A stretch of DNA of 64,000 nucleotides from Candidatus Gottesmanbacteria bacterium (GTDB lineage Bacteria > Patescibacteriota > Microgenomatia > UBA10105 > UBA927): the NCBI GenBank assembly GCA_023245355.1, contig JAHFKN010000002.1, forward strand, positions 72,460 to 136,459, written 5' to 3'. The translations under genes and the position numbers were made by a program. A model generated the notes under the pieces. That model had not been told where the DNA came from, did no database searches, and was given only the letters and a program-made list of their open reading frames with translations. Shown piece by piece: positions 42,447 through 59,719 of the stretch. Positions within the stretch are counted from its first letter, which is position 1; the number at the start of each line of letters is the position of its first letter.

Positions 42447-44630
42447 ATGGTCGCATCAGATCTCGTGGTATTAGAAATTCAAAACGCCAGAGAGAGCGAA
42501 GAGTCGCCCCTTGCGATGGAGCAGGTGTTTGCCGCTCTTGGAAGCGGCGGGGGTCATCAGAGTATTCTTTCCCGTTTGTTCAACCCCGGGCACACGCCGC
42601 CTTTTTTCAGTCTTGAGATGGTTTCGGTAAACAGCAGAATACATTTTTTTGTGGCAGTGCCGGAGTCTCTCCGGGGATACCTTGAGAGCCAGCTGACTGC
42701 GCAGTACCCGAGGTTGCTGATTGCAAAGGCACATGATTATGCGGAACACTTTCTTTCGCTTCCTCATGCGGCCGGGCAGCTTGTATACGGGAACAGCTAC
42801 TACCTGCCGATCAAAACATACAAAGACATCAAAGATCTTGATATTCTCTCCGGAGTGGCAGGACAGTTTGCCAAACTGGCGCCGCAGGAGGCGATTGCGC
42901 TGCAGATACGCGTGTCCCCTGCGGGTGGTGCCTGGCAACGGTCGCTTGCGTCTATTATCGCCCGGGGAGTGCCTGACCCGAATTCTACGGTCGGGCGCAC
43001 AAAGCCGCATCCGCATGCGCGGATTATGGAGGTAAAAATGAACCAGGTGGGCTTTTTTGCTTCATTGCGGCTTTTGGCTGTCGCCCCTACAGTCGAGCGT
43101 GCGCAACACATACTGCAGACGACGGCGGGATCCTTCGGGGTATACACCTTGGGAGAAGGGAATAATCTGGCGTTATCCGTTCCTCAGTTTTGGCAGAAGA
43201 AAAAATTTGAACATACGCTTCTTGTCCGTGGAGATTACGCCAGGCCGCAATTCCAGGTGATGGGGGCGTCGGAATTATCATCGCTATGGCATCCTCCGGG
43301 CATCGGGCTTTCCATGATCAAAAATATTCATTGGGGAGCGCATTTATTGGGTGAGGCACCGGCAAATTTGCCCATTTCGGTAGAAGACGCGGAAGAGAAG
43401 CGCCGTATCAACTTTTTTGCCCGGACGGAGTACAAAAATACGCCCACGATTTTCGGTATCAAAAAAGATGACCGTAGGAAACATGTCTACATCATCGGAA
43501 AAACCGGCACGGGAAAATCAACGCTGATTGCCAACATGGCGATAAATGATATGAAAAACGGGGAGGGTATGGCGGTCATTGATCCGCACGGGGATTTAAG
43601 TGAAATCATGCTGGATTACGTACCGTCACACCGGACAAATGATGTGGCATATCTGGATCCTGCGGACATGGATCACCCGTTTCACTTAAACCCTCTGGAG
43701 GTAAAAAATCCGGCCTACCGCGAGCTGGTCGCTTCCGGCATCGTGTCAATATTTTATAAACTGTATCACATGAGCTGGGGGCCCAGACTGGAGTATATTT
43801 TGCGGAATACGATCCTTACGCTTACACACGTTCCGCAGTCGACGTTTCTGGATATTCCTGAAATTCTTACAAACGATAAATACCGCGAAAAGATTGTCGA
43901 CAAGCTGGATGATCGGGTACTTAAAAATTTCTGGCTGAATGAATTTAATCGGTTGAGTCCGCAAATGCGGAGCGAATCCATTTCCCCGATTCTGAATAAG
44001 GTGGGTCAGTTTCTTTCGTCCAAGACAATCAGGAATATCGTAGGTCACCCTGTGTCTACCGTTGATTTGGAGAACATGATGAACGAGGGAAAAATCGTAA
44101 TCGTGAATCTTTCGCAGGGGAAGCTGGGAGAAGACAGCAGTGCGCTTTTGGGCGCCATGATTATTACGAAAATGCAGCTGGCCGCGATGAACCGGGTATA
44201 CACGGCAGAGGAGAGCCGCCGGGATTTTTACCTCTATGTTGATGAATTTCAAAATTTTGCAACCCAGTCGTTTATCAAAATACTTTCGGAAGCGCGTAAA
44301 TATAGGCTTAATTTAACGCTCGCAAATCAATATATCGGCCAGATCGATGAAGACGTGCAAAAAGCGATTTTCGGGAACGCGGGATCAATCGTTTCATTTG
44401 CGGTCGGCGCGGCTGACGCCCGCTTGCTTACCCGCGAATTCGGGGAGAAATACGAGGAATCGGAGCTTGTTGCACTCGGGAATTTCCAGATCGTTCTGAA
44501 GCTTTCCATTGATAATCAGACATCCACGCCGTTTTCTGCCATGACATTGCCGCTCCCCAGAAGTAAAAATGAGCACAGGGAAACGGTCATCCGCGTGTCT
44601 CGCGAACGGTATACAAAAAAGGTACAATAA
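42447..44630 (+). CDS. VirD4/TraG/TraD-family type IV coupling protein ATPase
   Basis: It has Walker A IIGKTGTGKST and Walker B YLYVDEFQNF. There is an unusual roughly 330-aa N-terminal domain with no obvious TM anchor. Confidence 0.7.
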   Translation: MVASDLVVLEIQNARESEESPLAMEQVFAALGSGGGHQSILSRLFNPGHTPPFFSLEMVSVNSRIHFFVAVPESLRGYLESQLTAQYPRLLIAKAHDYAEHFLSLPHAAGQLVYGNSYYLPIKTYKDIKDLDILSGVAGQFAKLAPQEAIALQIRVSPAGGAWQRSLASIIARGVPDPNSTVGRTKPHPHARIMEVKMNQVGFFASLRLLAVAPTVERAQHILQTTAGSFGVYTLGEGNNLALSVPQFWQKKKFEHTLLVRGDYARPQFQVMGASELSSLWHPPGIGLSMIKNIHWGAHLLGEAPANLPISVEDAEEKRRINFFARTEYKNTPTIFGIKKDDRRKHVYIIGKTGTGKSTLIANMAINDMKNGEGMAVIDPHGDLSEIMLDYVPSHRTNDVAYLDPADMDHPFHLNPLEVKNPAYRELVASGIVSIFYKLYHMSWGPRLEYILRNTILTLTHVPQSTFLDIPEILTNDKYREKIVDKLDDRVLKNFWLNEFNRLSPQMRSESISPILNKVGQFLSSKTIRNIVGHPVSTVDLENMMNEGKIVIVNLSQGKLGEDSSALLGAMIITKMQLAAMNRVYTAEESRRDFYLYVDEFQNFATQSFIKILSEARKYRLNLTLANQYIGQIDEDVQKAIFGNAGSIVSFAVGAADARLLTREFGEKYEESELVALGNFQIVLKLSIDNQTSTPFSAMTLPLPRSKNEHRETVIRVSRERYTKKVQ

Positions 44631-45268: not shown

Positions 45269-48200
45269 ATGGCAAACGAAGAATTATTCAAGCGGTTAAG
45301 TGAAGCGGCAAAAAAAGCTGCAGAAAGCGGCGGACAACCGCAGCCTCCGGAAGTGCCTCTACCCCCCGAAGTGCCGCTTCCCCCGGAGAAGCCGGAAGTG
45401 AAGGATACCGGAAAGCAGAAAGAGGTCAAGGAAGTAAGCCGCGAGCGCATAGCAAATCTTGCAGCAAAACTCGCAGAGTCTCAGTCAGAGGTGACCAAAA
45501 GGATTGTCGGCGAGAGTGGGGAGTTTCCCAAGGACGAGCGCGTGTTCGGCGTTATCGAAGCGCTTATCACGGCTGATGAAGCACAGTTGTCCGATTCCGC
45601 ATTTGTACGGGGTATAGGTGAGCAGTTGGTTGCACTCGCCAGGGAATCAGGACCCACAAGCGCTACGGCATTAGAGGCGCGGTCATATCTTGGAAAAATT
45701 GTTGCGGAACATCCTGAATTGGCACAGCTGCAGTTAGAAGCAATGCCGGCGATTTCCGGCGGCAGCGGGGCTCCTGAAGATGTGCCGGCTGATGATTCCG
45801 GCGATATAAACGGAGTCAAAGATCCTGAGTTGACCGGTGAGGTACAACATTTGTTTGATGAAGCGGCAGATGCGGATTTGAAAGACACGCCGCTGGCCGG
45901 TGACTTGCAGGAGCTTCAGTATCGTTTCCGTGTGGATCCGGGGGCCGCGTATGACAACCGGCTTACCGACGATGCCGTGCGGCGCATGGTAGAAAAGGGC
46001 CGGCGTGAAGGAGTTGATGAAAAGTTGGTGCAAAAAGCAGTTGAACGCGTCCGGTATTTTGAGCGATTTACGGATCTTCGGATGCAAAAACATCAGGAAA
46101 AACTCCGCGGCGGCAGAGTTGTGACATGGGGAGAAATCAGGGGGTCATCGCCGAATCCTGATTTGCATGCTGCTGACGAAGTGTTTTCCGATTTTAGAAA
46201 TATGCCTCCGGCAGATGTTGAATTGCTTATTCAGGGAGATGAGGGAGAGGCAAAATGGTATTTCGACTTTATCGATCAGATATATTCCATGGGACGGGAA
46301 GAAACGCGCCCGACGCTTACCCAGGATCAGCGCTTCCAGGAATTTAAGGATTATCTTGTATGGAAATACGGCGGGGAATATCATCTTGCCGTTCAGCTAT
46401 ATCAAAAACACTGGGACAGCAGAGGTCAGTACGAGTATGCCGTAAAAGGGCTCATGTACAACCCGGGAGACGTGAAAGACAGGCTGAAGGCGATGTCACT
46501 TCTTCAGGGAGCCGACTTGGATCACCTGTATAAAAATTTTGACCATTCAAACGAAGCGTACAGCTTATATGAACACGTGCTGTTTGAGCTTATGGCGACC
46601 AAGCGCGCAAAGTACGGCGAGGCCATAAAGTACATGCAGGAAGAAATTTCCTGGAACGGCAAGCACATGAAACGGGAAGACGTGTTAAAGGAACTCCGGG
46701 TGAAGCAGCGGCAGGAAGGGTTCGATCCTGCAACCGGCAAGAAAACCGAGAGTCCGCTTTCCATAGAGGATCAGCGGCTCATGCACGAGATTCAACAGCA
46801 GAATGATTTGGCGGCCGAAGGCGTTATGTTGTGGGACGATGACGTTCAAAGTTACACGGAGCTCCACATTACTCTTTCAAAGCTGCGTAATAATCGCGAA
46901 GAGTTGTTGAAGAAAAAAAGCCAGGGAACGGCGCTTACCGAAAAAGAAAATGAGCAGCTTGCTGAAGTTGACAGGTTATACCAGATTTATTCTCACAGAG
47001 AAGAGATGCTCAATGAAAATTTTACGCAGGAATTGTTGGAAACCCGCGGACTTTCCCCTGTGGATATAGAAGTACGCAAGCGGCTTGTCGAATACCTGCA
47101 GGCTCAGCATCCGGAGGATCCCAATTATAAGCCCGCAGAGTATGAAGTCCGTATGGCACTGTGGGCATCGCGTACCGCAATGATAGGGAGCGGGCGTATG
47201 GCAATGATCGGTGCTATGATGTCTATTCCTCCGGCGGTCGAATACGGGACAGCATCAGGGAAACATGTTATGCGCGCACCCGCATTTGAGGATATCCAGC
47301 GGATATTTAATCCGGAAACGTTTGCTACCCGGTTTAATATCGGAGGCGATATGGGTATCACCGCGCGGAGCATATTCCGTAAGAATCTGCTTAACACCAA
47401 AGGGATCAATCCTAAAGAGCCGGGGTGGTTTAAGAAAATCGGCGGAGCCGTCGAAAAGCTCGGAGACAAGTTCAAGATTACTCATTCCAAAGAATGGCAT
47501 GATGCGAAGCATCACGAGCACGATAAGCAGCGTCAGGCTTCTATGGAAGCGTGGGAGTTTGCGGAAGATGCCACCGGTATTTCATTCAGCGAGCTGCTGG
47601 GGCCCGGATTTATGGCGAGCGGAGGATTTTATGACGGCACCGCATGGCGGCTGGAAAAAGGTATTGCGGACGAGCTGCGCGGAAAACTGCTAAGCATGAA
47701 GAAGTTGCCGGAAAATGCTGCGCTGTTGGATAACCAGGCACTTTCAATCCAGCTGCTTACAGCAGGAAACGCCGCCGAGCGTAAACCCATTCTCGACCGG
47801 ATGCTTAGGCGCAATCCGTCAAAATTCCTTGAACTCTTAGAGGAAGATACCGAGCGGATATTAACCAAAAATAACATCACGCATGAAGAGTGGAAGAAAT
47901 TTAAAGAAGCGCTGTCGCTTGCTGAATTGAAGATGGCACACGAGAAGGAATGGCAATTTGCCCGTGTGGATCTGGCAGAAAAGAAAGATTTCGATGCACT
48001 CATTGCTCCGTATCTTGCGATATTAAAGCTTGACCCCGCGCGGTCAGAGAATTTGCGGCAGGTTCTGGTTGATATGCAGGCTGAGATATACCGCGGCCGC
48101 ACGGTAGAAGCCTCAGGTGGCACATTCCGTAACAAAATGGACGCCATTGCAGCATTGAAGTTGCCGTTAACCATGAGCATGACTGATTTTGACTGGAAAG

Positions 48201-48904
48201 AGTCGAATTTCTATCAGCTCGGAACCGTCGCAATGCACCGAAGAATCCGTGATGTAGGTGCGCAAATGCGCGCGCGCGACGGTATGCTCGGATTTTTCTC
48301 GAACGAAGAAATGGTGTTATCGCCGAATGACTATACCAAATCGCTTCAGAAAATGATGGAGGTCAGGACTGCGATAGTGGATTACTCGGGACCGGATGCG
48401 GCTGAAGCTACCGTAAAAGAAATGATGCGGGTGTTTTTCGAAATGAACCGGCACCGGAATTTGAATACGATCGGCTGGATACCGGGATTGACCCGCGGGC
48501 TTATGTATTTGGCCGAAGTAGATCTTAGGCCGCTTAAAAACAATAAGCTGCTTCAATTAGTGTTCGGAAAGGAACGCTGGCAGGAACTCGCGAAAGAAAA
48601 AATCAGCCACTGGCCGCATTCGGTGGGAGAGGCGATATCCTACTCTTCACGCTACACAGGAGCGCATGCAAATGCATGGGACGAAGCAAAAATGGAGGAA
48701 ATCCTCGTGTCCGCTCAGGACATGGGATTATTCATAAACCACCCGGAATTTATTCTGGATCTTCGGAATGAGTTTAAAACCGGGCTTCCGTATCGTCTGA
48801 CGGCGTTATACCGGAAGTATTGGTGGGTAGTGCTGGCAGCGACGCTGGCCATCGCAATTGAAAAGTCTACCAAGGAACAGGAAGGTGGAGGAGCGCACCA
48901 CTAG
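45269..48904 (+). CDS. large (1211 aa) mostly alpha-helical hypothetical protein with N-terminal PPEVPLP repeats and C-terminal TM anchor
   Basis: It is one long ORF, with a repeat at 45344-45400 and a hydrophobic tail WWVVLAATLAIAI. It is flanked by T4SS genes. Confidence 0.5.
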   Translation: MANEELFKRLSEAAKKAAESGGQPQPPEVPLPPEVPLPPEKPEVKDTGKQKEVKEVSRERIANLAAKLAESQSEVTKRIVGESGEFPKDERVFGVIEALITADEAQLSDSAFVRGIGEQLVALARESGPTSATALEARSYLGKIVAEHPELAQLQLEAMPAISGGSGAPEDVPADDSGDINGVKDPELTGEVQHLFDEAADADLKDTPLAGDLQELQYRFRVDPGAAYDNRLTDDAVRRMVEKGRREGVDEKLVQKAVERVRYFERFTDLRMQKHQEKLRGGRVVTWGEIRGSSPNPDLHAADEVFSDFRNMPPADVELLIQGDEGEAKWYFDFIDQIYSMGREETRPTLTQDQRFQEFKDYLVWKYGGEYHLAVQLYQKHWDSRGQYEYAVKGLMYNPGDVKDRLKAMSLLQGADLDHLYKNFDHSNEAYSLYEHVLFELMATKRAKYGEAIKYMQEEISWNGKHMKREDVLKELRVKQRQEGFDPATGKKTESPLSIEDQRLMHEIQQQNDLAAEGVMLWDDDVQSYTELHITLSKLRNNREELLKKKSQGTALTEKENEQLAEVDRLYQIYSHREEMLNENFTQELLETRGLSPVDIEVRKRLVEYLQAQHPEDPNYKPAEYEVRMALWASRTAMIGSGRMAMIGAMMSIPPAVEYGTASGKHVMRAPAFEDIQRIFNPETFATRFNIGGDMGITARSIFRKNLLNTKGINPKEPGWFKKIGGAVEKLGDKFKITHSKEWHDAKHHEHDKQRQASMEAWEFAEDATGISFSELLGPGFMASGGFYDGTAWRLEKGIADELRGKLLSMKKLPENAALLDNQALSIQLLTAGNAAERKPILDRMLRRNPSKFLELLEEDTERILTKNNITHEEWKKFKEALSLAELKMAHEKEWQFARVDLAEKKDFDALIAPYLAILKLDPARSENLRQVLVDMQAEIYRGRTVEASGGTFRNKMDAIAALKLPLTMSMTDFDWKESNFYQLGTVAMHRRIRDVGAQMRARDGMLGFFSNEEMVLSPNDYTKSLQKMMEVRTAIVDYSGPDAAEATVKEMMRVFFEMNRHRNLNTIGWIPGLTRGLMYLAEVDLRPLKNNKLLQLVFGKERWQELAKEKISHWPHSVGEAISYSSRYTGAHANAWDEAKMEEILVSAQDMGLFINHPEFILDLRNEFKTGLPYRLTALYRKYWWVVLAATLAIAIEKSTKEQEGGGAHH
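45344..45400 (+). repeat. imperfect 18-nt tandem repeat encoding PPEVPL PPEVPL PPEKPEV
   Basis: It was read directly from the sequence. Confidence 0.5.
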
Positions 48905-48947
48905 AGACTAAGGATAAGGAAAAGACAGAGGAAAAAGAAAGACGTCT

Positions 48948-50543
48948 TTAGTGTCCGCCGCCGCCGGTAATTGATCCGAGGCCCTTTTCAGCTCCCTCAC
49001 GCGCAACCTGCATAGATGATTTTGCCTCAGGTTTATGGCGGAACGCGCTGGCTATAAAGCTCGCCTGATATCCTAAGTTAAACAGCGTTCCGACTCCGGA
49101 TCCTAATGGCCCGACAATCGGGCCGACGCCTCCCGGAACTAACGGCTCAGCTTTGAGGGATTTTTGCAGTCCCTGGATGATCGTCGGGATAACCATGAGC
49201 ATGCCGAGTCCGATCAGTCCGGCCATGCCATACGTTCCTTCTCCGGTAGAAAGCAGCGGCGGTGCCCATATTTTGGTTGAAACATCCTGCGAGGTGAGAA
49301 CGGCCGTCACAAGCAGCAGAAGCACGGTGATAGGGAATACAAGGATTTTGGATAATAAATTTTTAAACCACGAGCTGAATGCGTTCGTTCCCGGAATGGC
49401 CTCCATCATCAGTTGAAACGGAGCGGTAAGGAGCGAAATGATAATGTTTATATACGCATCCAGAAGCATGAAGATGAGCCGGATCACGCCAAACAGCAGG
49501 ATAATCAGAAATATGACGGCCAGCAGCACCGGCCCCGTGGTTAATCCGAGCAGGGCTCCCCGCAGACCGAACATATAGCCGATGACGCCCGGGACGACTG
49601 TCCATCCGGCAATTTTCCAGGGATCATTCTGTGTAATCATGGCTCCGATATCATCGTACGCCTGGAATCCGCTGGCAAAGAAGAACCGCAGGAGTCCGCT
49701 GACGCCTCCGTTTAAGAGCAGTTTCGTCGCGTTTTCTACGGGAGCTGTCGTAGACGGGGGAGTAAAGCTTGGCGGCAAGGCGTCGATATTGAGTGTGGTC
49801 GCAAGACTTAATAATTTACCTAAGTTCCCTCCCGACGCACTGTCCACTGCTGATGCCGAAAGGACAATCGCAAGATACATAAGATCAATCATGGCGCCGA
49901 CGATGGCATAGGAAAATGTTACCAGCACCAATGCAATGACAATCCGCGGGATGGCGTTCTGAACGGTGACTACTGTTTTGGGATCGATTTTTTTCCGGAA
50001 CATCACCATAAATCCGACAACGATGATAATGATGGCCAGCAGGGCGTAGGCGATGTTACGGAAGACTTTCCATAGCGGCAGCATACTGGCCAGTCCGGAA
50101 AATCCTATTCCCTGTGCTTCTGCTTTTTTGGGCATAAATCCCAAGGTTCTGCCTACATCCGCGATGTACTCAGTACTCCGCGCAGGCGGATTCCGGTACA
50201 TGGCAAGCGTGCTTCTGGCAAGACCTGCCATGGCGCTTTTTTGATAGCTTAGTCCGATCGGGCATCCCGGTGAGGCGGCATCGCACAACCCGCGGAAACC
50301 GATAATGAGCTGACCCTGGCTCATGGTTGCGGTTCCGACGTCTCCTGCCTGCTTGTTGAGCGCACCTTCCGATGCCTTCATAAGTCCCGCCACAACACAG
50401 TTCATGTCCAGATACCACGTCGCATCATCACACTCTGCTCCCGGCACTGCCGGAGGATCAGCGGCCATAACACGGGAAGGGACCGCTAAGGCTGCAGTCA
50501 AAAGTAAGAGAAATGCGCTGATAAACAAAACTACGCGACGCAT
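48948..50543 (-). CDS. VirB6/TrbL-like polytopic T4SS membrane protein
   Basis: A signal peptide is followed by a Cys-containing extracytoplasmic domain and 6 or more TM helices. It lies directly downstream of the pilin genes. Confidence 0.5.
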   Translation of the reverse strand: MRRVVLFISAFLLLLTAALAVPSRVMAADPPAVPGAECDDATWYLDMNCVVAGLMKASEGALNKQAGDVGTATMSQGQLIIGFRGLCDAASPGCPIGLSYQKSAMAGLARSTLAMYRNPPARSTEYIADVGRTLGFMPKKAEAQGIGFSGLASMLPLWKVFRNIAYALLAIIIIVVGFMVMFRKKIDPKTVVTVQNAIPRIVIALVLVTFSYAIVGAMIDLMYLAIVLSASAVDSASGGNLGKLLSLATTLNIDALPPSFTPPSTTAPVENATKLLLNGGVSGLLRFFFASGFQAYDDIGAMITQNDPWKIAGWTVVPGVIGYMFGLRGALLGLTTGPVLLAVIFLIILLFGVIRLIFMLLDAYINIIISLLTAPFQLMMEAIPGTNAFSSWFKNLLSKILVFPITVLLLLVTAVLTSQDVSTKIWAPPLLSTGEGTYGMAGLIGLGMLMVIPTIIQGLQKSLKAEPLVPGGVGPIVGPLGSGVGTLFNLGYQASFIASAFRHKPEAKSSMQVAREGAEKGLGSITGGGGH

Positions 50544-50579
50544 ACGTTCATTATCCCGATGAAATCAATCAAAGTCAAT

Positions 50580-50900
50580 CTACTGTGTGATCGTAAAATC
50601 GGTGACTTTGACACCTGTAAAGGTTTCGATTGTGAGAATGATAAGGTAAGCAAGCGACATGATAACGATGCCGATAATCGCCTGTGTGACTGTGCCTTTG
50701 GCGGCCTCCAGTTTTTTCTGATCGCCGCCGGAAAAAAGGAAGTTAAACCCGCCGACAAGCAGCATGATAAAGAGTGCTACCGCACCCAGTGATACAACTG
50801 CCCTGATGACATTGGTAACAAGCGGAACCAGACACTGAATTGAAGCGACTCCCTGAGCCTCTGTAATGCCATAGCCCTGAGAACAAGCATCAGTGTTCAT
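50580..50900 (-). CDS. VirB2/TrbC-like T4SS pilin (paralog 1)
   Basis: It has a two-TM hairpin with the GGFNFLFSGGDQKKLEAAK loop motif shared by the family. Its own promoter is TTGTCA-17-TAATAA at 50910-50938. Confidence 0.6.
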   Translation of the reverse strand: MNTDACSQGYGITEAQGVASIQCLVPLVTNVIRAVVSLGAVALFIMLLVGGFNFLFSGGDQKKLEAAKGTVTQAIIGIVIMSLAYLIILTIETFTGVKVTDFTITQ

Positions 50901-50971
50901 ATACGGATATTATTACGTACTCCGGTAGGCTGTGACAAGAGCCCCCTTATGCTGCACGAAAGTTTTTCGGG

Positions 50972-51301
50972 TTAATACGGCTTCGGGAAGTTAATGGAGC
51001 CGCCGATAATCTGCACGCCCAGAAAGTTCTGGACAAGCGTCATTACCGCCCATGCGGAACCCACAATGATGAGTCCGACGATTGCGTGGGTAATTTTATT
51101 GCGGGCTTCCTCCATGCCGGCTTTGTCGCCGCCTGAGGTAATCCATTTAATGCCTCCCAGGATGAGGTAAAGAAAGGCGAGTAAGGCTGCGATGATAAGA
51201 ACGGTGCCGACGAGGGCACTGATCAATTTACCGATGTCGGTAATTTTGATCGTATCCGGCTGTTTGACATCAAGAGCTGCTTGGGCAAATACTTTCTGCA
51301 T
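50972..51301 (-). CDS. VirB2/TrbC-like T4SS pilin (paralog 2)
   Basis: It has LGGIKWITSGGDKAGMEEARNKITHAIVGLIIVG. The ATG at 51301 is used because the tracked start at 51319 is TTG. Confidence 0.6.
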   Translation of the reverse strand: MQKVFAQAALDVKQPDTIKITDIGKLISALVGTVLIIAALLAFLYLILGGIKWITSGGDKAGMEEARNKITHAIVGLIIVGSAWAVMTLVQNFLGVQIIGGSINFPKPY

Positions 51302-51334
51302 AATCAATCCTTTCGTCAAATCAATACAACCTTT

Positions 51335-51363
51335 ATTATACCTTACTTACCATTCTTGCGCAA
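51335..51363 (-). promoter_or_regulatory. sigma70-like promoter TTGCGC-17-TATAAT upstream of pilin paralog 2
   Basis: The hexamers were read on the minus strand. They lie about 30 nt upstream of the ATG at 51301. Confidence 0.4.
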
Positions 51364-51384
51364 GAAAACGGGATTTGTCAACAC

Positions 51385-51726
51385 TTAGTTGCCGATTGTC
51401 GGAATCGGAAGATTGGGGAAATCCAACCCCAGGAAATTACTGACAATCATCATGACTGCCCAGGATGCGCCCACTACAACCAGCCCGATTAACGCATTGG
51501 TGATTTTGTCCCGTGCAGACTGAAGTTTGGCTTTGTCGCCCGCGCTTGTGACCCAGTCAAGACCACCCAGGAACATATAGAGGAGTGCCGATATAAACGC
51601 CAGAATCAGAAATACGCCGACGATTGAGCTGATAAGCGACCCGATGATCGGAGGACCGGCCTCTTTTCCGCCCGAACCGAGTGCGCCGGGAAGTACGGGA
51701 TTGATAATTTGTGCAAGTTGGTGCAT
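51385..51726 (-). CDS. VirB2/TrbC-like T4SS pilin (paralog 3)
   Basis: It has LGGLDWVTSAGDKAKLQSARDKITNALIGLVVVG. Confidence 0.6.
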   Translation of the reverse strand: MHQLAQIINPVLPGALGSGGKEAGPPIIGSLISSIVGVFLILAFISALLYMFLGGLDWVTSAGDKAKLQSARDKITNALIGLVVVGASWAVMMIVSNFLGLDFPNLPIPTIGN

Positions 51727-51732
51727 AACAGA

Positions 51733-52101
51733 TTATTGATTCGGACTGAGTTGTTCGAGCAATCCTCCGGGATTTGCCAGCGTGAAGTCAAATCCGAAAA
51801 ATACGCTTACGAGCGCTAAAATTGCCCAGCTGGCTACGACGATAATGAGTCCGATAAGCGAATTTGTGAGTCTGTCCCGTGCAGACTGAAGTTTGGCTTT
51901 GTCGCCGCCTGCATTAATCCAGTTAAAGCCACCGATAATAAACTGAAACAGGAACCATATTCCTGCGGCAACAGTCATGATGCCGATGACAGAGGAAACC
52001 AGTTTTGTAATACCGGTGATTCCGTCTCCTGCTGATTCGCCGAACGGACCCAGTCCCGCGCCTCCTATTTGTCCCAACGATACCTGAGCTAGCTGTTTCA
52101 T
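51733..52101 (-). CDS. VirB2/TrbC-like T4SS pilin (paralog 4)
   Basis: It has IGGFNWINAGGDKAKLQSARDRLTNSLIGLIIVV. It is 6 nt upstream of paralog 3. Confidence 0.6.
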   Translation of the reverse strand: MKQLAQVSLGQIGGAGLGPFGESAGDGITGITKLVSSVIGIMTVAAGIWFLFQFIIGGFNWINAGGDKAKLQSARDRLTNSLIGLIIVVASWAILALVSVFFGFDFTLANPGGLLEQLSPNQ

Positions 52102-52105
52102 ACAA

Positions 52106-52441
52106 TTATTGTCCCGGTCCGTATATCACCGGGTTCAGGATATAGTCTGCCCGGCCGAAAATAAGATATCCGAACAGTGATGCGAGGGCAAATGATCCGA
52201 CGATGATGATAAGTCCCAAAAGTGACTGCCAAATTCTGCTCCACGCTTCAGAAAGTTTTTTGGAATCGCCGGCCGCGTTCATATAGCTATAGCCGGCAAT
52301 GATAAAGTTCATGAGGGCATAGACACCTGCCGCCACGAAAAAGAGGCGGAGAATATTGGTAATAAATAATCCGATTCCTCCCACTCCAGCATAGCTGGTT
52401 CCTTCAAGCGGATTTTGTACCTGTCCGACGATTTGTTCCAT
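52106..52441 (-). CDS. VirB2/TrbC-like T4SS pilin (paralog 5)
   Basis: It has IAGYSYMNAAGDSKKLSEAWSRIWQSLLGLIIIVG. Confidence 0.55.
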   Translation of the reverse strand: MEQIVGQVQNPLEGTSYAGVGGIGLFITNILRLFFVAAGVYALMNFIIAGYSYMNAAGDSKKLSEAWSRIWQSLLGLIIIVGSFALASLFGYLIFGRADYILNPVIYGPGQ

Positions 52442-52454
52442 AATGATGCCGGCT

Positions 52455-52766
52455 TTAAAAGCCCACAGGACTCAATATTTGTTTTCCGGTAACGACTTCG
52501 ATGATTTGTATGATCCAAAATGATCCTAATACCAGAAGCAGCCCCGTAATAGCGCCGGTGATGGCTGTTTTGCCCTGCTGTGCTTTTTTTGCGTCTCCCG
52601 CCGCTACTATAACGTTAAATCCGCCGAAAATCAATAAAATAAAGCTGATAATACCCGCTAAAACGAATGCATTTTTGACGATTGCCGTGACCACCATTCC
52701 GTAGGTTGTCAGCTCGGGGTTGGGGGCAAGATCCTGTAATGACTCTGCAAATACGCGCTCAATCAT
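52455..52766 (-). CDS. VirB2/TrbC-like T4SS pilin (paralog 6)
   Basis: It has FGGFNVIVAAGDAKKAQQGKTAITGAITGLLLVLG. The ATG at 52766 is used because the tracked start at 52808 is TTG. Confidence 0.55.
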   Translation of the reverse strand: MIERVFAESLQDLAPNPELTTYGMVVTAIVKNAFVLAGIISFILLIFGGFNVIVAAGDAKKAQQGKTAITGAITGLLLVLGSFWIIQIIEVVTGKQILSPVGF

Positions 52767-52833
52767 ATCTATACTAGTAAGTGTAGGGAATTTGCCCGAG
52801 CACGTCAATTATGCTAAAGTAACCCTCATCCCC

Positions 52834-53373
52834 ATGAATGACGCAGCTCTTATTGCCCGTTTGTTTGCTCATGACCGGCGCACGGCAGCCTCTTTTTACC
52901 AGCAATACGCACCGCAACTGCGGCGCCACATCCTTTCAAAAGTAAAAACGGCCGAAGATGCGGAAGAAATACTTCAGGATACGCTGTTTTCGTTTTTGGA
53001 AGGACTCCGGGATTTTCGCGAACATTGCAGTGTCAGGACATACCTTTTTTCTATCTGCCACCATAAGATCATTGATTATTACCGGAGGAAAAAAATCAGC
53101 CATTTCGTGTTTTCACAGCTCCCTCAGCTGGAAACACTCGTCTCTCCGCTGTTAGGACCGGAGGCAGAACTGGATTCCGTGCTTATAAAAGAAAAAATCC
53201 GTACGGTATTTGCCCGGCTGATTCCGGTGCACCGGCAGGTATTGATACTCAAGTATCTGGAACGTGCTTCGGTAGAGGAAATTGCTGACAAGCTCTCTAT
53301 TACGTTTAAAAGCGCGGAATCGAGGCTGTTTCGGGCCCGCAGAGCGTTTGTGGAGCTTTTTCTTTCCATATAA
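52834..53373 (+). CDS. ECF-type RNA polymerase sigma-70 family factor
   Basis: It has region 2 (ILQDTLFSFLEG...) and region 4 (LILKYLERASVEEIADKLSITFKSAESRLFRARRAF). Confidence 0.7.
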   Translation: MNDAALIARLFAHDRRTAASFYQQYAPQLRRHILSKVKTAEDAEEILQDTLFSFLEGLRDFREHCSVRTYLFSICHHKIIDYYRRKKISHFVFSQLPQLETLVSPLLGPEAELDSVLIKEKIRTVFARLIPVHRQVLILKYLERASVEEIADKLSITFKSAESRLFRARRAFVELFLSI

Positions 53374-53375
53374 CT

Positions 53376-53606
53376 ATGAGTGATGTAACGTACCAAAAGT
53401 TTGTCAAACGATGGGAGGAGGTAACCGATATTCCTCCGCAGACGTTCGGTCCGCTGACAGGCGTATATAAACAGCTTACGAAGCGGCTCAAAGTTATGCC
53501 GTGGCCGTGGTTTGTGATCGCCGGTATCGGATTCGTGCTTATGCTGTATGTGCTTATCGGCTCGGCAATTACGATGCTCACAACCATTCTTCAAAACAGC
53601 TTCTGA
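53376..53606 (+). CDS. small single-TM protein, putative anti-sigma factor
   Basis: The 76-aa product has one TM helix and lies 3 nt downstream of the ECF sigma gene. Confidence 0.4.
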   Translation: MSDVTYQKFVKRWEEVTDIPPQTFGPLTGVYKQLTKRLKVMPWPWFVIAGIGFVLMLYVLIGSAITMLTTILQNSF

Positions 53607-53659
53607 TATATGGCACTCCGGTTTTTTAAACAGCGGATTTAGGCTGGCAGCGCGGGTTT

Positions 53660-54310
53660 TTGTCCGATGTTGCGACTACCATATTAATGGACATATTGAG
53701 CGTACTTATTGTGGATGCCGTCGCGTTTGGCCGTACCGTCATAGGGATTATGACGCGGCCGTATGAAACGTACCGGAGGATCAGCAGCAAAGGAAAATCC
53801 GGGGAACTTCTGTATATTTTTGTAGTATTGGGTGTATATTTTGCGCTGGCAAGTATTGTAAAGGTGGCTGCATTCCGGCCGTTTTTGCTGACGCAGCAAT
53901 TTGTCGTCCTGTTTGCCGGGGCGCTAAGCGGAGCGCTTGTATCAACAGGGATCATTTTTATCGCGGGCCGGCTGTTTGGGGCCCGCGCGGCATTTATTCC
54001 GCTTCTGGTTGCCTGGTCATACACGCTCATTCCGACCGTCGTATGGTTTTTTGCCACGTCGCTCCTCTACGTATTATTGCCTCCGCCCCGAACTACCAGC
54101 GTTCCGGGGATTCTGTTCAGTCTGCTGTTTTTGGCGTTTTCCGCAACACTTTTGGGATGGAAAGTCACGCTTTCCTACCTTACGCTCCGGTTCAGCCTGA
54201 GGCTAAATTTCGGAAAAAGCATGCTGGTTGCGGCGGTATGTGCGCCGGTCGTTGCCGCATGGGCGTATGCCATGTATAAAACAGGAATATTTAAGGTGCC
54301 ATTTTTATGA
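53660..54310 (+). CDS. Yip1-domain-like polytopic membrane protein
   Basis: It has 5 TM helices and an N-terminal RPYETY region. Confidence 0.4.
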   Translation: MSDVATTILMDILSVLIVDAVAFGRTVIGIMTRPYETYRRISSKGKSGELLYIFVVLGVYFALASIVKVAAFRPFLLTQQFVVLFAGALSGALVSTGIIFIAGRLFGARAAFIPLLVAWSYTLIPTVVWFFATSLLYVLLPPPRTTSVPGILFSLLFLAFSATLLGWKVTLSYLTLRFSLRLNFGKSMLVAAVCAPVVAAWAYAMYKTGIFKVPFL

Positions 54311-55473
54311 ACGTACGGGATTTTTCATCAGCTGATGAGCGCAGGAAGGCCGTGGAAAAGGAGTTGTCCGTCGAGCTTACGCATATCGGCTCGTATAGCC
54401 TTGATGCTGGTGTTGCCGGGACACGCAACTGCGAGAATATGATCGGAGCGGCCCAGATACCCATGGGCGTAGCCGGCCCGCTCACTCTAACGACTGTTAA
54501 CGGGAAGAGCAATACCTACTATCTTCCGCTTGCCACGACAGAAGGGGCGCTTGTCGCGTCGGTTAACCGCGGGTGCAAAGCGATAACTGTAAGCGGGGGC
54601 GCAACAGTTGATAGCCATAGGGTAGGCGCGACCCGGGGCCCGGTATTTAAAGTTGCTAATCTTTCGGAAAACCGGAGATTGCATGAGTATTTAGAAGGGC
54701 ACTTTTCCGAACTCAAGGAGATAACAGAGAAAACTTCGCGCCATCTTACGCTCAAAAAGATCACATCCCGGGGGGTGGGCCTGTATCGGTTTGTCAGGTT
54801 TGTATATGACACCCAGGATGCCATGGGTCTTAATATGGTGACCATCGCAACAGATGCTGCATGCCGGTATATAGAAGAACAAACAGGGAACACCTGCGTT
54901 GCCCTTTCCGGAAATTTTTGTGTCGACAAAAAAGCTTCGTGGCAAAACTTCGTAAGCGGCAGGGGAACCAAAGTGTGGGCAGAGGTAGTGCTGCCGGCGG
55001 AGGTTTTGCGGGGAGTGTTAAAGACTGATGCCCACAAGGCATACGGAACGTGGCTGGCAAAATGTATGCTGGGAAGTGCTGTGAGCGGTTCGATCGGATT
55101 TAACGGGCAGTTTGCCAATGTGGTAGCAGCTCTTTTTATCGCGACAGGGCAGGATCCGGCGCACGTGGTGGAAGGCAGCCTCGGAGTAACCACGGCTGAA
55201 GTGGTTAATGGGAGTGATTTGTATGTAAGCGTATACCTGCCGGACCTTATGGTCGGAACGGTGGGAGGAGGGACGACGCTCGCAACCCAGCACGAAGCAC
55301 TTAGTATGCTTGGTGTGGCAGGGGCTTCCCCGGAGGGGAAACACGGAAAAAATGCGCAAACACTTGCAGAGATTGTCGGCGGTGCCGCACTGGCAGGAGA
55401 AATTTCCCTTTTGTCATCCCTTGAGCAGGGAACGCTCGCGCAGGCACACAATAAGCTTGGGAGAGGCAAATAA
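54307..55473 (+). CDS. hmgA: hydroxymethylglutaryl-CoA reductase (NADPH), class I, short archaeal-type
   Basis: Motifs ENMIG, TTEGALVAS, DAMGLNM and GTVGGGT are present. Confidence 0.85.
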   Translation: MNVRDFSSADERRKAVEKELSVELTHIGSYSLDAGVAGTRNCENMIGAAQIPMGVAGPLTLTTVNGKSNTYYLPLATTEGALVASVNRGCKAITVSGGATVDSHRVGATRGPVFKVANLSENRRLHEYLEGHFSELKEITEKTSRHLTLKKITSRGVGLYRFVRFVYDTQDAMGLNMVTIATDAACRYIEEQTGNTCVALSGNFCVDKKASWQNFVSGRGTKVWAEVVLPAEVLRGVLKTDAHKAYGTWLAKCMLGSAVSGSIGFNGQFANVVAALFIATGQDPAHVVEGSLGVTTAEVVNGSDLYVSVYLPDLMVGTVGGGTTLATQHEALSMLGVAGASPEGKHGKNAQTLAEIVGGAALAGEISLLSSLEQGTLAQAHNKLGRGK

Positions 55474-55474
55474 T

Positions 55475-56518
55475 ATGGTCGGTATCATTTCCTACGGCAC
55501 GTATATTCCGAAATACCGCATCCGTATCGCGGATATTGCGGCAGCATGGAAAAAAGACGTTGAAGAAGTAGTCCGTTCGTTAGGACTCACGGACAAGTCC
55601 GTTCCGGGATTTGATGAAGACGCCGCAACGATTGCCATTGAAGCCGCTTTGGAAAGTCTGTCCGTATTTTCCGGCACGGCAAGCGACATCGACGTGTTGT
55701 TTGTCGGAAGCGAAAGCCATCCGTACGCGGTAAATCCGACGTCAACAACCGTCGGAGAATTATTGGGAGTCGGACACGAATATCTGGCGGCTGATATGGA
55801 ATTTGCCTGTAAAGCCGGAACAGCCGCCATACAGGCGATCGCGGGCCTTGTTGCCGCCGGACATGCCGGGCTTGGTATGGCAATAGGAACGGATACGGCG
55901 CAAGGCAAGCCGCATGATTTTTTGGAATATACGGCTGCAGCCGGAGGAGCTGCTTTTTTGATCGGGAGTGAACACATCGCCGCAAAATTGTTGGCAGATA
56001 CGTCCTATTCGTCTGACACACCGGATTTTTGGCGCCGTGACGGCATGCGGTACCCTTCACATGCGGGCAGATTTACGGGGGAGCCTGCATATTACAGCCA
56101 CGTGATGGGCGCGGCTACGAGGTTGTTGGAGATGACTAATACAAAACCCACTGATTATGCGTATTGTATTTTCCACAGTCCGAACGGCAAATTTCCCCGG
56201 GAAGTAGCACGGAGATTGGGATTTACATCCGCGCAGCTGGCGCCGTCATTGCTGGTGGATCATATCGGGAATGCGTATTCGGCGACTACCATGCTGGGGC
56301 TTGCCGCAGTACTCGATATCGCAAAACCGAATCAAAAAATATTTATGGTTTCCTACGGATCAGGGGCAGGAAGTGATGCGTTCGTCTGGGAAACGACCCC
56401 AGACCTTGTGCGTTTACAGAAAGCAAAAACAAAAACCAAACAACGCGTGATGGATCAGGTAAGCCGGAAAATATACGTGGATTACGTCCAGTTTTTGAAA
56501 TTAACCCATAAACTATGA
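55475..56518 (+). CDS. hydroxymethylglutaryl-CoA synthase (archaeal-type)
   Basis: It has a thiolase-like fold with the Cys in MEFACKAGT. GGAGAGG lies 9 nt upstream of the ATG at 55475. Confidence 0.85.
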   Translation: MVGIISYGTYIPKYRIRIADIAAAWKKDVEEVVRSLGLTDKSVPGFDEDAATIAIEAALESLSVFSGTASDIDVLFVGSESHPYAVNPTSTTVGELLGVGHEYLAADMEFACKAGTAAIQAIAGLVAAGHAGLGMAIGTDTAQGKPHDFLEYTAAAGGAAFLIGSEHIAAKLLADTSYSSDTPDFWRRDGMRYPSHAGRFTGEPAYYSHVMGAATRLLEMTNTKPTDYAYCIFHSPNGKFPREVARRLGFTSAQLAPSLLVDHIGNAYSATTMLGLAAVLDIAKPNQKIFMVSYGSGAGSDAFVWETTPDLVRLQKAKTKTKQRVMDQVSRKIYVDYVQFLKLTHKL

Positions 56519-57654
56519 AACTGTTTGTAACAGGGGCAGCAACAACCAAATTCGGTGAACTATGGAATGCGTCTCCGCGCGGGCTTGCGCGCCACGCGGT
56601 GTTTGAGGCACTCAAAGATGCAGAAACTCTTCCATCTTCCGTGGAGGCATTGTTTGTGGGAAACATGCTTTCCGGAATGTTAGGGGGCCAAGAGCATCTC
56701 GGTGCGTTTTTTGCGGAAGAATTGGGGTTAACTGTTCCGGCATTTAAAGTGGAGGGAGCCTGCGCGTCTGGAGGCTTGGCGCTTCACAATGCCGTAAACA
56801 GTTTGTTAAGCGGACAGTATACGACGGTTGCGGTATTGGGGATAGAAAAAATGACTGATCATAAACCGGAAGATGTTGCGACGGCTCTTATGGGGGCAGG
56901 AAGTGAGGAAGAGAGAAGCGCCGGGGCAACATTTCCGGGGCTGTACGCAATACTTGCACGCGTACATATGCGCGAGTTCGGCACGACCGAAGAAGATCTC
57001 GCCGCCGTGGCCGTCAAAAATCACCTGCATGCCAGTCTCAATCCGAACGCTCAGTTTCATAACACGCTGACGGTCGAGCAGGTGATGAAAAGCAGCAGGA
57101 TAGCCGACCCGCTGAAGCTGCTGGATTGTTCACCGATTTCCGATGGTGCCGCAGCGGTTATCCTGAGTATCCATAAAACGCAAAGAGGAGTGGAATTGTC
57201 CGCCTCTGCGGTAGCAACGGACACGCTGGGGTTAGCACAGAGGAAAGATCTTACCCAGCTTGCTGCTACACGTGATGCATCCCAAAAAGCATATGCGATT
57301 GCAGGGGTAACCGAAGCCGATATTGATGTTGCCGAAGTGCATGACTGTTTCACGATTGCCGAGGTGCTTGCTATGGAGGATTTGGGATTTTTCCCCAAGG
57401 GAAAAGCGGCAGCGGCTATTGCCCAGGGAAAAACGACGGTAGGGAATGGCAAACATGTGGTTGTGAATCCGTCGGGCGGCCTGAAGGGGTGCGGACACCC
57501 GGTCGGAGCTACCGGAGTAAAGCAAATTGTCGAGTTGGTAGATCAGCTCCGGGGAATTGCCGGGAAGCGGCAAGTGTCCGGTGCGCGCGTCGGGCTTGCC
57601 CATAATGTCGGAGGGAGCGGGGCTACCGCAGTCATTCATATATTGAAAAAATAA
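56515..57654 (+). CDS. acetyl-CoA C-acetyltransferase (thiolase, archaeal-type)
   Basis: It has the active-site Cys in GACASGGLAL and the C-terminal motifs NPSGGL and GHPVGATG. Confidence 0.85.
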   Translation: MKLFVTGAATTKFGELWNASPRGLARHAVFEALKDAETLPSSVEALFVGNMLSGMLGGQEHLGAFFAEELGLTVPAFKVEGACASGGLALHNAVNSLLSGQYTTVAVLGIEKMTDHKPEDVATALMGAGSEEERSAGATFPGLYAILARVHMREFGTTEEDLAAVAVKNHLHASLNPNAQFHNTLTVEQVMKSSRIADPLKLLDCSPISDGAAAVILSIHKTQRGVELSASAVATDTLGLAQRKDLTQLAATRDASQKAYAIAGVTEADIDVAEVHDCFTIAEVLAMEDLGFFPKGKAAAAIAQGKTTVGNGKHVVVNPSGGLKGCGHPVGATGVKQIVELVDQLRGIAGKRQVSGARVGLAHNVGGSGATAVIHILKK

Positions 57655-57656
57655 AT

Positions 57657-57959
57657 ATGCAAAGTCCGGTAAAAATTTGGAGAAATCAGAAAAATATTGC
57701 CGCATTGGTCGGTAAAACAGGCACGATTATTTCGTGGACCATCGTGCGTGTGCCGCCGGGGGATTTTACGGATCAGGCGCCGTATCCGGTGGTGCTCATT
57801 GAGATGGAAGACGGAAAACACGTGACATGTCAGATGGTTGATTATGACGTCAGTGATCTTTCCGTAGGGCAACGCGTTATAACGATTGTCCGCCGGGTAA
57901 CCCACCCGGATGCAGACGGGGTGATTCCGTACGGCATCAAAGCAAAACCACTCGTATGA
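57657..57959 (+). CDS. DUF35 OB-fold/Zn-ribbon scaffold protein of thiolase/HMGCS complex
   Basis: It is 100 aa with an OB-fold signature, immediately after the thiolase gene as in archaeal mevalonate operons. Confidence 0.7.
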   Translation: MQSPVKIWRNQKNIAALVGKTGTIISWTIVRVPPGDFTDQAPYPVVLIEMEDGKHVTCQMVDYDVSDLSVGQRVITIVRRVTHPDADGVIPYGIKAKPLV

Positions 57960-58897
57960 AAAAAATTATTGTTTCTGTACCTGGAAAAGTTCATCTCATG
58001 GGAGAGCATGCCGTGGTGTATGGAAAACCAGCATTACTTGCTGCAATCAATTTGCGACTGTCTGTTTCCATCGAACCGGCTAAGAAATTTGAAATTATTT
58101 CTACTGAGCCTACGGATCACGCGCAATGCGCGGTAGATTATTTACTTGGTCAATTCAAAGTTAAAAAATATCCTTTGATAAAAATTACCATTGATTCACA
58201 GATTCCGGCAGGATTTCATTTAGGTTCATCTGCGGCTGTGGCAGTTGGATTATCGGGTGCCATGATGTATTTTTTCAAAAAACTCTGGAATCCAATTCGG
58301 ATAAATGAATTAGCGTATGAAATTGAAAAGAAACAACACGGTAATCCTTCAGGCGGTGATAACACGACAGTAACAGTTGGAGGATTTGTGTGGTTTCGGA
58401 AAGAATTGGAGTTTTTGAAAAGCATCTGGCAGCTTACGTTTAAACCTCATGCTTCACTTAACCATTTTTTTCTTATTAAGACGAAGCGTCCATCAGAGAC
58501 TACCGGAGAAATGGTTGCACTCGTACGCGATCAGTACACAAAGAATCAAAAGAAAATCGAAGAATTGTTGAATCTCAATGAGCAGCAAGCGAAGCGTGTG
58601 ACAGTCGCGCTTAAGGAAGGGAACGAAGCAGCGCTTCTTGACGCTATTTGTATTGGCGAGTCAACGCTTGAGGGAATGGGAGTGGTGAGCGCAAAGGTTA
58701 CACCGCTTATACGTTCGATAGAAAAGAATGGGGGAGCGGCAAAAATATTAGGTGGTGGTGGAAAAGAAGATGGTGTAGGTTTTTTGCTTTGTTATCATCA
58801 TGAGCCAAAGCGCATTGACAAGATGTGCAAAAAGTATGGTTATGAGATTCGCTCCGTTGCACTTGGTGAAGACGGGGTGCGTTTAGAAAAACGATAA
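57956..58897 (+). CDS. mvk: mevalonate kinase (GHMP kinase)
   Basis: VPGKVHLMGEHAVVYGKPALLAAI and the GHMP motif PAGFHLGSSAA are present. Confidence 0.8.
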   Translation: MKKIIVSVPGKVHLMGEHAVVYGKPALLAAINLRLSVSIEPAKKFEIISTEPTDHAQCAVDYLLGQFKVKKYPLIKITIDSQIPAGFHLGSSAAVAVGLSGAMMYFFKKLWNPIRINELAYEIEKKQHGNPSGGDNTTVTVGGFVWFRKELEFLKSIWQLTFKPHASLNHFFLIKTKRPSETTGEMVALVRDQYTKNQKKIEELLNLNEQQAKRVTVALKEGNEAALLDAICIGESTLEGMGVVSAKVTPLIRSIEKNGGAAKILGGGGKEDGVGFLLCYHHEPKRIDKMCKKYGYEIRSVALGEDGVRLEKR

Positions 58898-58899
58898 CT

Positions 58900-59712
58900 A
58901 TGTCTCTTCAAGAACGACAACCCAAAATATCTCACGGGCTTATTCATTCATATGAACAAAGAGATTTTGCTACTGGACCAAAGACATATTCAGACGAACG
59001 CTTGTTTGATGTAATTGATACGGCCTCTGGGTTGAAAGGAAATAGAGAGCGTCAAGTAGTTGCTGATATGATGTCTGGGCCCGGCAATGTTGGATTAGCC
59101 TTATATGCACGACACCCTGAGCACACATATTATTTTATCGATTTAGCAAATAAACAGCTGCAAAAAATTTCAGCCGATAAACTTAATTGCATAAAGATAC
59201 AGGGAGATATTCGGAAATTGCCAATTTCAGATAATACATTTGATGTAGCTGTTGCGCGGTACGCGATAAAAGATTTGCCACAAGATGAACAATCAATTGC
59301 ACTGGCGGAAATATTCCGTACGTTAAAACCCGGTGGAGTATTTGTGTTAACTGACATGGTATCGCCAAGCGATGAAACGAAATCATGGCTCAATGCTCAG
59401 CATGCGAAAAAGCAGGAATTATCTGGCCGGCAGAAAAGCGAAGGGGTCTGTCATATCCCAACAGAGAAAGAATGGTTACATGTTTTGTCTCAAGCAGGAT
59501 TTAAGCCCGTAGTCGAAGGATATTCGACAAGTTATGTATCGACTGATGACTGGGTGAAGGGGAAGCAAATAACATCAGAGCAAGCGTCTGTATTAAACGA
59601 AATGATAATTCATGCACCATTATATATTCAAAAAGCGTTTACTATTCGAAATGACAAAGGTGCTGTTACGATTGAATATCCAGTGGTAATCATTAAAGCA
59701 ATAAAATTATGA
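58900..59712 (+). CDS. class I SAM-dependent methyltransferase embedded in mevalonate operon
   Basis: Methyltransf_11-like motifs DMMSGPGNVGL and LKPGGVFVLTD are present. Confidence 0.65.
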   Translation: MSLQERQPKISHGLIHSYEQRDFATGPKTYSDERLFDVIDTASGLKGNRERQVVADMMSGPGNVGLALYARHPEHTYYFIDLANKQLQKISADKLNCIKIQGDIRKLPISDNTFDVAVARYAIKDLPQDEQSIALAEIFRTLKPGGVFVLTDMVSPSDETKSWLNAQHAKKQELSGRQKSEGVCHIPTEKEWLHVLSQAGFKPVVEGYSTSYVSTDDWVKGKQITSEQASVLNEMIIHAPLYIQKAFTIRNDKGAVTIEYPVVIIKAIKL

Positions 59713-59719
59713 TGCGGTT

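Follow-up and report, generated by a model that had tools for sequence, protein, structure and literature searches.

A conserved six-gene array of putative VirB2-like pilin genes in an origin-proximal type IV secretion locus of Candidatus Gottesmanbacteria

The window analysed here, a chromosomal stretch of 64,000 nucleotides (nt) whose closest public genomes are metagenome-assembled genomes of Candidatus Gottesmanbacteria (Microgenomatia, Patescibacteria), contains at positions 50580-52766 an array of six head-to-tail open reading frames (ORFs) on the minus strand, encoding proteins of 103-122 amino acids (aa) that resemble the VirB2-like pilins of type IV secretion systems (T4SSs). We number these genes P1 to P6 in the 5' to 3' direction of the minus strand; paralogs 1, 2, 3 and 4 of an earlier note on this DNA correspond to P6, P5, P4 and P3, respectively. 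The intergenic gaps from P1 to P6 are 13, 4, 6, 65 and 71 nt, the fourth being 83 nt if counted from the ATG of P5 that is preceded by a Shine-Dalgarno sequence; in the ORF listing the P5 frame extends to a TTG at 51319. The start of P1 was set by an ATG conserved in the alignment of its relatives. The earlier note had described six genes arranged head to tail and with these gaps, each coding for two transmembrane segments, and the description is borne out, as is its total of eight paralogs, two of which (P7 and P8) lie outside the array.

All six products match the Pfam family PF18895 (T4SS_pilin) with E-values between 7e-8 and 2e-4, and three of them, P3, P5 and P6, score above its gathering score of 26.6 bits; P1, P2 and P4 are assigned to the family because they are tied to it via their paralogs. 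The TrbC/VirB2 model PF04956 matched none of the six proteins at E <= 0.01. Hydropathy and charge profiles revealed in each paralog two long hydrophobic segments with a short charged GD(K) loop between them, and an AlphaFold2 model of P5 is a helical hairpin with helices at residues 22-55 and 60-94 (predicted local distance difference test score 75.5, with 84-95 in the core). A profile made from the P5 orthologs and the window paralogs gave only two chance matches when compared with solved structures. Within the array the paralogs are 21-49% identical to one another at the aa level, and G..G..G..G are the only invariant loop columns across all six. The loop motif given in the earlier note is exact in P3, P4 and P5 if written GG(F/L/I)xW(I/V)(T/N)(S/A)(A/G)GDK, and is looser in P1, P2 and P6. 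Its divergent N-terminal "leaders", on the other hand, turned out to be short hydrophilic tails and not signal peptides: the N-terminal ~19-28 residues of the six proteins lack a hydrophobic h-region ahead of helix 1, and the upstream gaps of 4-13 nt are too short to accommodate longer ORFs with a cleavable leader. The PF18895 matches of all six products, together with the T4SS neighbourhood described below, support their identification as VirB2-like T4SS pilin-family proteins, in agreement with the earlier note.

The N-tails of P1-P5 and of P8, and those of their orthologs, also share a beginning of the form M-x-(Q/E/K)-(V/L/I)-(F/A/V)-(A/G)-Q (e.g. 52752-52766 and 51281-51301). This motif might mark a site of processing or of recognition, or provide a context for translation initiation.

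Using the 531-aa membrane protein encoded next to the array as query we retrieved 36 related loci, and screened all of their ORFs for pilin genes with a hidden Markov model (HMM) made from the window paralogs. Array counts and orthology are based on the 30 loci with full coverage. Left out of this set were L004, with disrupted ORFs, L008 and L019, which are cut at contig ends but carry the expected distal pilin genes, and L021 and L036, which are too short; in the Saccharibacteria locus L035 there are no pilin genes in the stretch examined. Exactly six pilin genes, in the same order, lie immediately upstream of the same membrane protein in 30 of the 30 full-coverage loci. Further, in every array the i-th gene has as its best BLASTP match the i-th gene of the window, with the next-best paralog far behind, and this one-to-one positional matching persists while the identity of the neighbouring membrane protein drops from 90% to 35%. 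Mean identity within the orthogroups is 0.51-0.61 for P1-P4 and P6 (0.61 for P2) and 0.76 for P5, whose copies in L005, L006 and L012 are 99-100% identical as against only 62-65% for the membrane protein. Relative to the four closest relatives the ratio of nonsynonymous to synonymous divergence (dN/dS) is 0.04-0.17 for P1-P4 and P6 and lowest, 0.01-0.03, for P5, all of these values being approximate given saturated dS.

Each orthogroup was also found to carry marks of its own in the tails, among them a C-tail ILNP.IYGP in P2, an N-tail LG.IGG.GLGPFG in P3, the tails LAQi.NPVLP and GidfpnLpIP in P4, the motifs KVFAQ...QP..iKItD and infPkPy in P5, and a conserved Cys pair in the N-tail of P6. 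The fixed order, one-to-one orthology, purifying selection and paralog-specific tails argue for six old and needed genes as opposed to a fluid repertoire, and together constitute the signature of ancient positional orthologs under strong purifying selection, each of which would be individually required.

At one of the loci set aside (L004, 7550-9963) P1, P2 and P5 look disrupted, with P5 split into two ORFs, which could be due either to misassembly or to the array decaying in a single lineage.

The layout of the array is likewise retained in the relatives, with P1-P4 packed, 50-150 nt before P5 and about 50-110 nt before P6. A consensus scan detected a promoter of the form TTGACG-17-TACACT ahead of P1, of which TACACT and the -35 element are kept across about 20 loci; the P1 ATG lies 13 nt downstream of it, as against 6 nt in many relatives. 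In the gap before P5 the scan matched TTGACA-18-AAGAAT, and the same region contains a -35 element, TTGCGC, which forms part of the 8-bp palindrome TTGCGCAA and is separated by a 17-nt spacer from TATAAT. TTGACAA, TTGCGCAA and TATAAT are kept in most of 21 aligned loci. The promoter of P6 is preserved in the alignment of relatives as CTTG(T/C)C ... ATAATA ... ATG. The promoters that the earlier note had assigned to its paralogs 1 and 2 (P6 and P5) are therefore matched by the scan and conserved in both position and sequence. Taken together, the units P1-P4, P5, and P6, as well as the 531-aa membrane protein, are each predicted to have their own conserved sigma-70-like promoter. P5 has a Shine-Dalgarno sequence and none precedes P1, P6 or the 531-aa gene; the short distances between promoter and ATG point to mRNAs that are leaderless for P6 and the membrane protein and nearly so for P1. 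An obvious intrinsic terminator follows P5 in three distant loci, and a scan of the intergenic gaps of the window found none. A search of Rfam with positions 48800-53700 gave no family match, only two sub-threshold chance matches.

Two further features were noted in these upstream regions. The combination of TTGCGCAA with the TTGACAA about 12 nt upstream of it could represent a regulator site or tandem promoters. The sigma factor gene divergent from P1 shows the same leaderless-type layout, and such mRNAs seem to be widespread in this lineage (L001-L033).

The earlier note had also drawn attention to an identical stretch of 33 nt in P3 and P4. The stretch is real and one base longer, 34 nt, and lies in two genes whose identity is 46% at the protein level and 52-54% at the DNA level, less than the roughly 60% then stated. 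Codon-column permutation gave a p of about 5e-5 for such a tract, or about 7e-4 corrected for 15 pairs; identical residues are encoded by the same codon in 11 of 11 cases inside the tract versus 7 of 36 outside it (Fisher p = 1.8e-6); and among 930 between-genome pairs of P3 and P4 the longest shared tract is 21 nt, with the 99th percentile at 15 nt. By all three measures the sharing exceeds chance. Nucleotide-level constraint as the cause was ruled out, as synonymous sites in this segment vary freely among the orthologs of both genes. The tract is absent from the closest relatives, L001 and L007, and so must be recent; it is a genuine micro gene conversion. Signals of its direction are mixed, a GCC (Ala) codon looking P3-like and a TCT (Ser) codon P4-like. 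It sits in the loop, where both proteins already nearly agreed, and has altered at most ~1 residue per gene.

Private tracts in other lineages (73 nt between P3 and P4 in L034, 23 nt in L011, and 20-28 nt between P4 and P5 in L014, L020, L025 and L032) indicate that short gene conversion recurs among the three most similar paralogs. Tracts above the between-genome 99th percentile occur in 4 of 31 genomes for P3-P4 and in 4 of 31 for P4-P5; they are absent in most other pairs, with none in 10 pairs that involve neither two of P3-P5 nor P5-P6. Mean P3-P4 identity is 0.499 within genomes versus 0.477 between genomes, about equal, and hence the paralogs are not being homogenised overall. Of the recombination and concerted evolution suggested by the earlier note, the former has left its footprint and the latter finds no support; from the alignments the conversion is best described as an occasional, near-neutral homogenisation that is neither concerted evolution nor a generator of variants.

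Table 1. Features of the window discussed in the text, in order of position
Feature	Coordinates	Strand	Remarks
M23 peptidase	36171-38357	-	Pfam
VirB4-like ATPase	38364-40286	-	Pfam; P6 is the seventh gene from it
TrsD-like protein, 219 aa	40286-40945	-	NCBIfam: TrsD and N-terminus of the VirB4 of Mycoplasma integrative and conjugative elements
PrgI/VirB3-like protein	40951-42222	-	Pfam
Coupling-protein-like ATPase	42447-44630	+	Pfam
1211-aa protein	45269-48904	+	No family match
531-aa polytopic membrane protein	48948-50543	-	Directly downstream of P6; VirB6/PrgH position
Predicted promoter of 531-aa protein gene	50550-50578	-	TTGACT-17-GATAAT; ATG 6 nt past -10; conserved
P6	50580-50900	-	106 aa; PF18895 32.8 bits, above gathering score; two conserved Cys in N-tail
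Predicted P6 promoter	50909-50938	-	TTGTCA-18-AATAAT; ATG 8 nt past -10; consensus scan
P5	50972-51301	-	109 aa; PF18895 41.1 bits, above gathering score; Shine-Dalgarno sequence
Predicted P5 promoter region	51335-51381	-	TTGACA 51381-51376; TTGCGCAA 51363-51356; TATAAT 51340-51335
P4	51385-51726	-	113 aa; PF18895 25.7 bits, below gathering score; closes the packed P1-P4 unit
Gene-conversion tract, P4 copy	51507-51540	-	34 nt; encodes GDKAKLQSARD
P3	51733-52101	-	122 aa; PF18895 28.0 bits, above gathering score; Gly-rich N-tail
Gene-conversion tract, P3 copy	51873-51906	-	34 nt; identical to P4 copy
P2	52106-52441	-	111 aa; PF18895 22.2 bits, E 1.5e-4, below gathering score
P1	52455-52766	-	103 aa from ATG 52766; PF18895 21.9 bits, E 1.8e-4, below gathering score
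Predicted P1-P4 promoter	52780-52808	-	TTGACG-17-TACACT; consensus scan
ECF-type sigma factor	52834-53373	+	Sigma70_r2/r4 domains; divergent from P1
76-aa membrane protein, possible anti-sigma	53376-53606	+	Beside the ECF sigma gene
Mevalonate-pathway operon	54307-62342	+	Most steps of the pathway
P8, paralog outside the array	62355-62705	-	PF18895 35.6 bits; paralog-HMM match
P7, paralog outside the array	62708-63172	-	PF18895 27.5 bits; paralog-HMM match

The array belongs to a T4SS locus whose synteny is kept in the relatives (Table 1). The window contains dnaA and dnaN at 32.5-35.2 kb, at the minimum of the cumulative GC skew and ~15-20 kb from the array, and a distance of 6-14 kb separates the array from the VirB4-like, PrgI-like and coupling-protein genes. 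In every related locus the pilin array is followed by the 531-aa membrane protein, for which there is no match in Pfam (E up to 10), in NCBIfam, or in the PDB with a 16-sequence profile. Its Saccharibacteria homolog (L035, 3952-5403) is encoded directly upstream of the PrgI, TrsD-like and VirB4 genes, and family searches with this homolog were also without a match. The name VirB6 was dropped for this protein, in view of the lack of a match in Pfam, NCBIfam and the PDB, and we refer to it as the VirB6-position polytopic protein. VirB6 homologs are said in the literature to be scarce in Microgenomatia, and this protein is a candidate for a highly divergent one. On the other side of the array the pair formed by the extracytoplasmic function (ECF) sigma factor and the 76-aa membrane protein lies next to it, encoded on the other strand, in virtually all related loci, and may be a regulator pair.

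The two paralogs outside the array form a pair beside the gene for undecaprenyl-diphosphate synthase; the same pair is present in L034 (526-1218). P7 is the only paralog with a signal-peptide-like hydrophobic N-terminus and has four Cys in its longer N-terminal part, and the N-terminus of P8, MHKLLAQIIN, resembles that of P4. The 1211-aa protein is convergent to the membrane protein and next to the coupling-protein gene; it is 61-93% identical in close relatives and 21-33% identical or undetectable in distant ones, and is possibly a surface or effector protein associated with the T4SS. The operon beside the T4SS locus includes genes for hydroxymethylglutaryl-CoA (HMG-CoA) reductase, HMG-CoA synthase, thiolase, GHMP kinases and diphosphomevalonate decarboxylase, in addition to the undecaprenyl-diphosphate synthase; the reductase, synthase and thiolase genes hold the same position in most relatives.

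The interpretation that we favour, and consider likely, is that the array is the pilin module of a chromosomal, origin-proximal T4SS and consists of six old, non-redundant VirB2-like subunits, of which P5 is likely the main one. Each protein would form a two-helix hairpin with its short N-tail and C-tail outside the cell and the GDK loop, with its K/R residues, in the cytoplasm. The genes would be expressed as the units P1-P4, P5 alone and P6 alone, with the membrane protein under its own promoter, and the six products would act together in one apparatus. P5 is proposed as the abundant main subunit on account of its near invariance, its having the best promoter and its Shine-Dalgarno sequence. 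P1-P4 and P6, told apart by their own conserved exposed tails, would act as minor or adaptor subunits with specialised roles. The resulting structure would serve host-cell contact or transfer in epibiotic growth, as suggested for Southlakia epibionticum.

Several points weigh against this interpretation. P1, P2 and P4 fall just under the gathering score of PF18895 (E 1e-5 to 2e-4), and there is no sequence match between the six and any solved VirB2, TraA or TrbC structure. Every comparison sequence is metagenome-assembled, and the selection estimates are the approximate ones given above. The role of P5 as main subunit is argued only from its conservation and the quality of its promoter, and no Patescibacteria T4SS is known to build an extracellular filament. 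Finally, the proteins vary most in their exposed tails, with identities of 0.35-0.54 in several orthogroups, and this variability leaves room for some host-related adaptation.

The last of these points is shared with the proposal of the earlier note that the array is a repertoire for antigenic or host-range variation, in which interchangeable paralogs whose diversity is refreshed by recombination would be used for evading recognition or attaching to different hosts. The strong divergence among the paralogs, the low conservation of the exposed tails and the short conversion tracts in several lineages are all consistent with this proposal, and the virB2 arrays of Anaplasma and Bartonella are read in this way in work cited in PMC12102498. 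It is, however, at odds with the fixed number and order of the genes and their one-to-one orthology in all covered relatives, with purifying selection on six of the six genes (dN/dS 0.01-0.17), and with the conserved tail motifs specific to each paralog. Within-genome identity is about equal to that between genomes, the window tract lies in an already shared loop, and there are no silent or truncated cassettes. The idea is thus already largely contradicted, and we consider it very unlikely.

A different use of six distinct genes would be as condition-specific sets, with P1-P4, P5 and P6 as modules used alternatively or in stages and turned on and off by the neighbouring ECF sigma factor and anti-sigma candidate, for instance on host contact. 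The separate conserved promoters of the three units fit such switching, as does the divergent conservation of the sigma factor and small membrane protein beside P1 in nearly all loci; but in sequence the promoters resemble those of a housekeeping sigma-70 (TTGACG/TACACT, TTGCGC/TATAAT) and not of an ECF type, and we regard this scheme as improbable. The six hairpins might instead be membrane-embedded components that line a channel or an assembly platform together with the polytopic protein, without any extracellular filament. Monoderm T4SSs are generally without pili (PMC12102498, PMC12857230). None of the six proteins has a cleavable signal peptide, unlike classical VirB2 and TrbC, the array always adjoins the polytopic protein, and P5 weakly resembles the "pilin-like" protein NF045849 of Mycoplasma integrative and conjugative elements (ICEs; E 3e-7, below cut-off). 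We know of no pilus described in the wall-less bacteria that carry the NF045849 protein. Conversely, PF18895 bears the name of a pilin family and was modelled as one, and the six distinct conserved extracytoplasmic tails, including the Cys pair of P6, suggest exposed and interacting surfaces. We judge a purely membrane-embedded role unlikely, if worth keeping in mind. A stricter version of our preferred interpretation holds that the six are obligate, non-interchangeable subunits of a single heteromeric filament or channel, with P5 as the main subunit and the others at distinct positions, and that this set is old enough to match the six essential pilins of Saccharibacteria. We offer this version tentatively, as a possibility on the doubtful side; if true, Patescibacteria would ancestrally have possessed a multi-pilin conjugative-type apparatus that has no counterpart among the T4SSs studied.

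Patescibacteria, which grow attached to host cells, represent a large part of bacterial diversity. Wang et al. 2023 (PMC10633639) found the T4SS, pilin series included, to be essential in Southlakia epibionticum ML1, the one Patescibacteria species tested so far, and a 2025 review lists six VirB2-like pilins in this species (PMC12857230). A fixed six-gene set shifts the idea of such arrays from spare variants for different hosts to a multi-subunit structure that needs each gene, and antibodies, tagging or filament purification would best be directed at P5 first.

Arrays of this kind have been published, and the present one is a member of the described kind. Quinonero-Coronel et al. 2025 (PMC12102498) used PF18895 and PF04956 to screen 3,035 Patescibacteria genomes, Gottesmanbacteria among them, and defined a VirB2-like array as at least 2 pilin-HMM-positive genes, in tandem or one gene apart, at most 20 coding sequences from virB4. 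They recovered 441 arrays of 2-11 VirB2-like genes, spread over 383 assemblies and most abundant in Microgenomatia and Saccharimonadia, with a within-array identity of 25% on average and 54% at maximum and with T4SS genes near dnaA, and suggested that the versatility of the arrays may aid adaptation to different host strains. The six tandem genes studied here lie near the VirB4-like gene at 38364-40286 and agree with these arrays in their PF18895 membership, their place in a chromosomal, dnaA-proximal T4SS of monoderm type in Microgenomatia, and the divergence of their paralogs, as they do in number with the six genes of S. epibionticum; there is no difference in kind. The array as such being already described, the gain is a refinement and not a discovery. 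What is added for this clade is the fixed number and order with one-to-one orthology, the purifying selection, the promoter layout in separate units and the nearly invariant P5, as well as a conversion between paralogs that is real but marginal. These findings argue against both the variation idea of the earlier note and the versatility for different hosts suggested in PMC12102498.

Beyond Patescibacteria, the proteins share with the classical VirB2 of Agrobacterium, TrbC of RP4 and TraA of F their small size, the two hydrophobic helices with a short charged loop and the location in a T4SS locus. They differ from them in having no match to PF04956, no long cleavable leader, a monoderm host and six co-conserved paralogs instead of one; further, no VirB5-like partner was detected, unlike in the classical systems. 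The virB2 arrays of Anaplasma, Bartonella and other Rickettsiales-type systems are similar as tandem, divergent virB2-like genes in a T4SS concerned with host interaction, but whereas those are taken to provide antigenic or host-range variation in the work that PMC12102498 cites, here the genes have kept their number, order and sequence throughout a deep clade, under purifying selection. The proposed arrangement of one main-subunit gene with its own promoter and an operon of minor subunits, all retained together, is reminiscent of type IV pili and type II secretion pseudopili, in which the main subunit is highly expressed and several specialised ones are of low abundance, though this is an analogy of gene layout and conservation, the protein families and assembly machines being unrelated. 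The Mbov_0395/MMCAP2_0565 protein of Mycoplasma ICEs (NF045849) is weakly matched by P5, P7 and P8 over ~70 residues (E 3e-7 to 9e-4), with all scores below the cut-off (30 vs 40 bits). As far as is known, Mycoplasma ICEs carry a single pilin-like copy. Together with the matches of the 219-aa gene to TrsD and to the N-terminus of the Mycoplasma ICE VirB4, the resemblance to NF045849 hints that a VirB2-like gene is native to monoderm systems of the FATA type and not borrowed from diderm ones.

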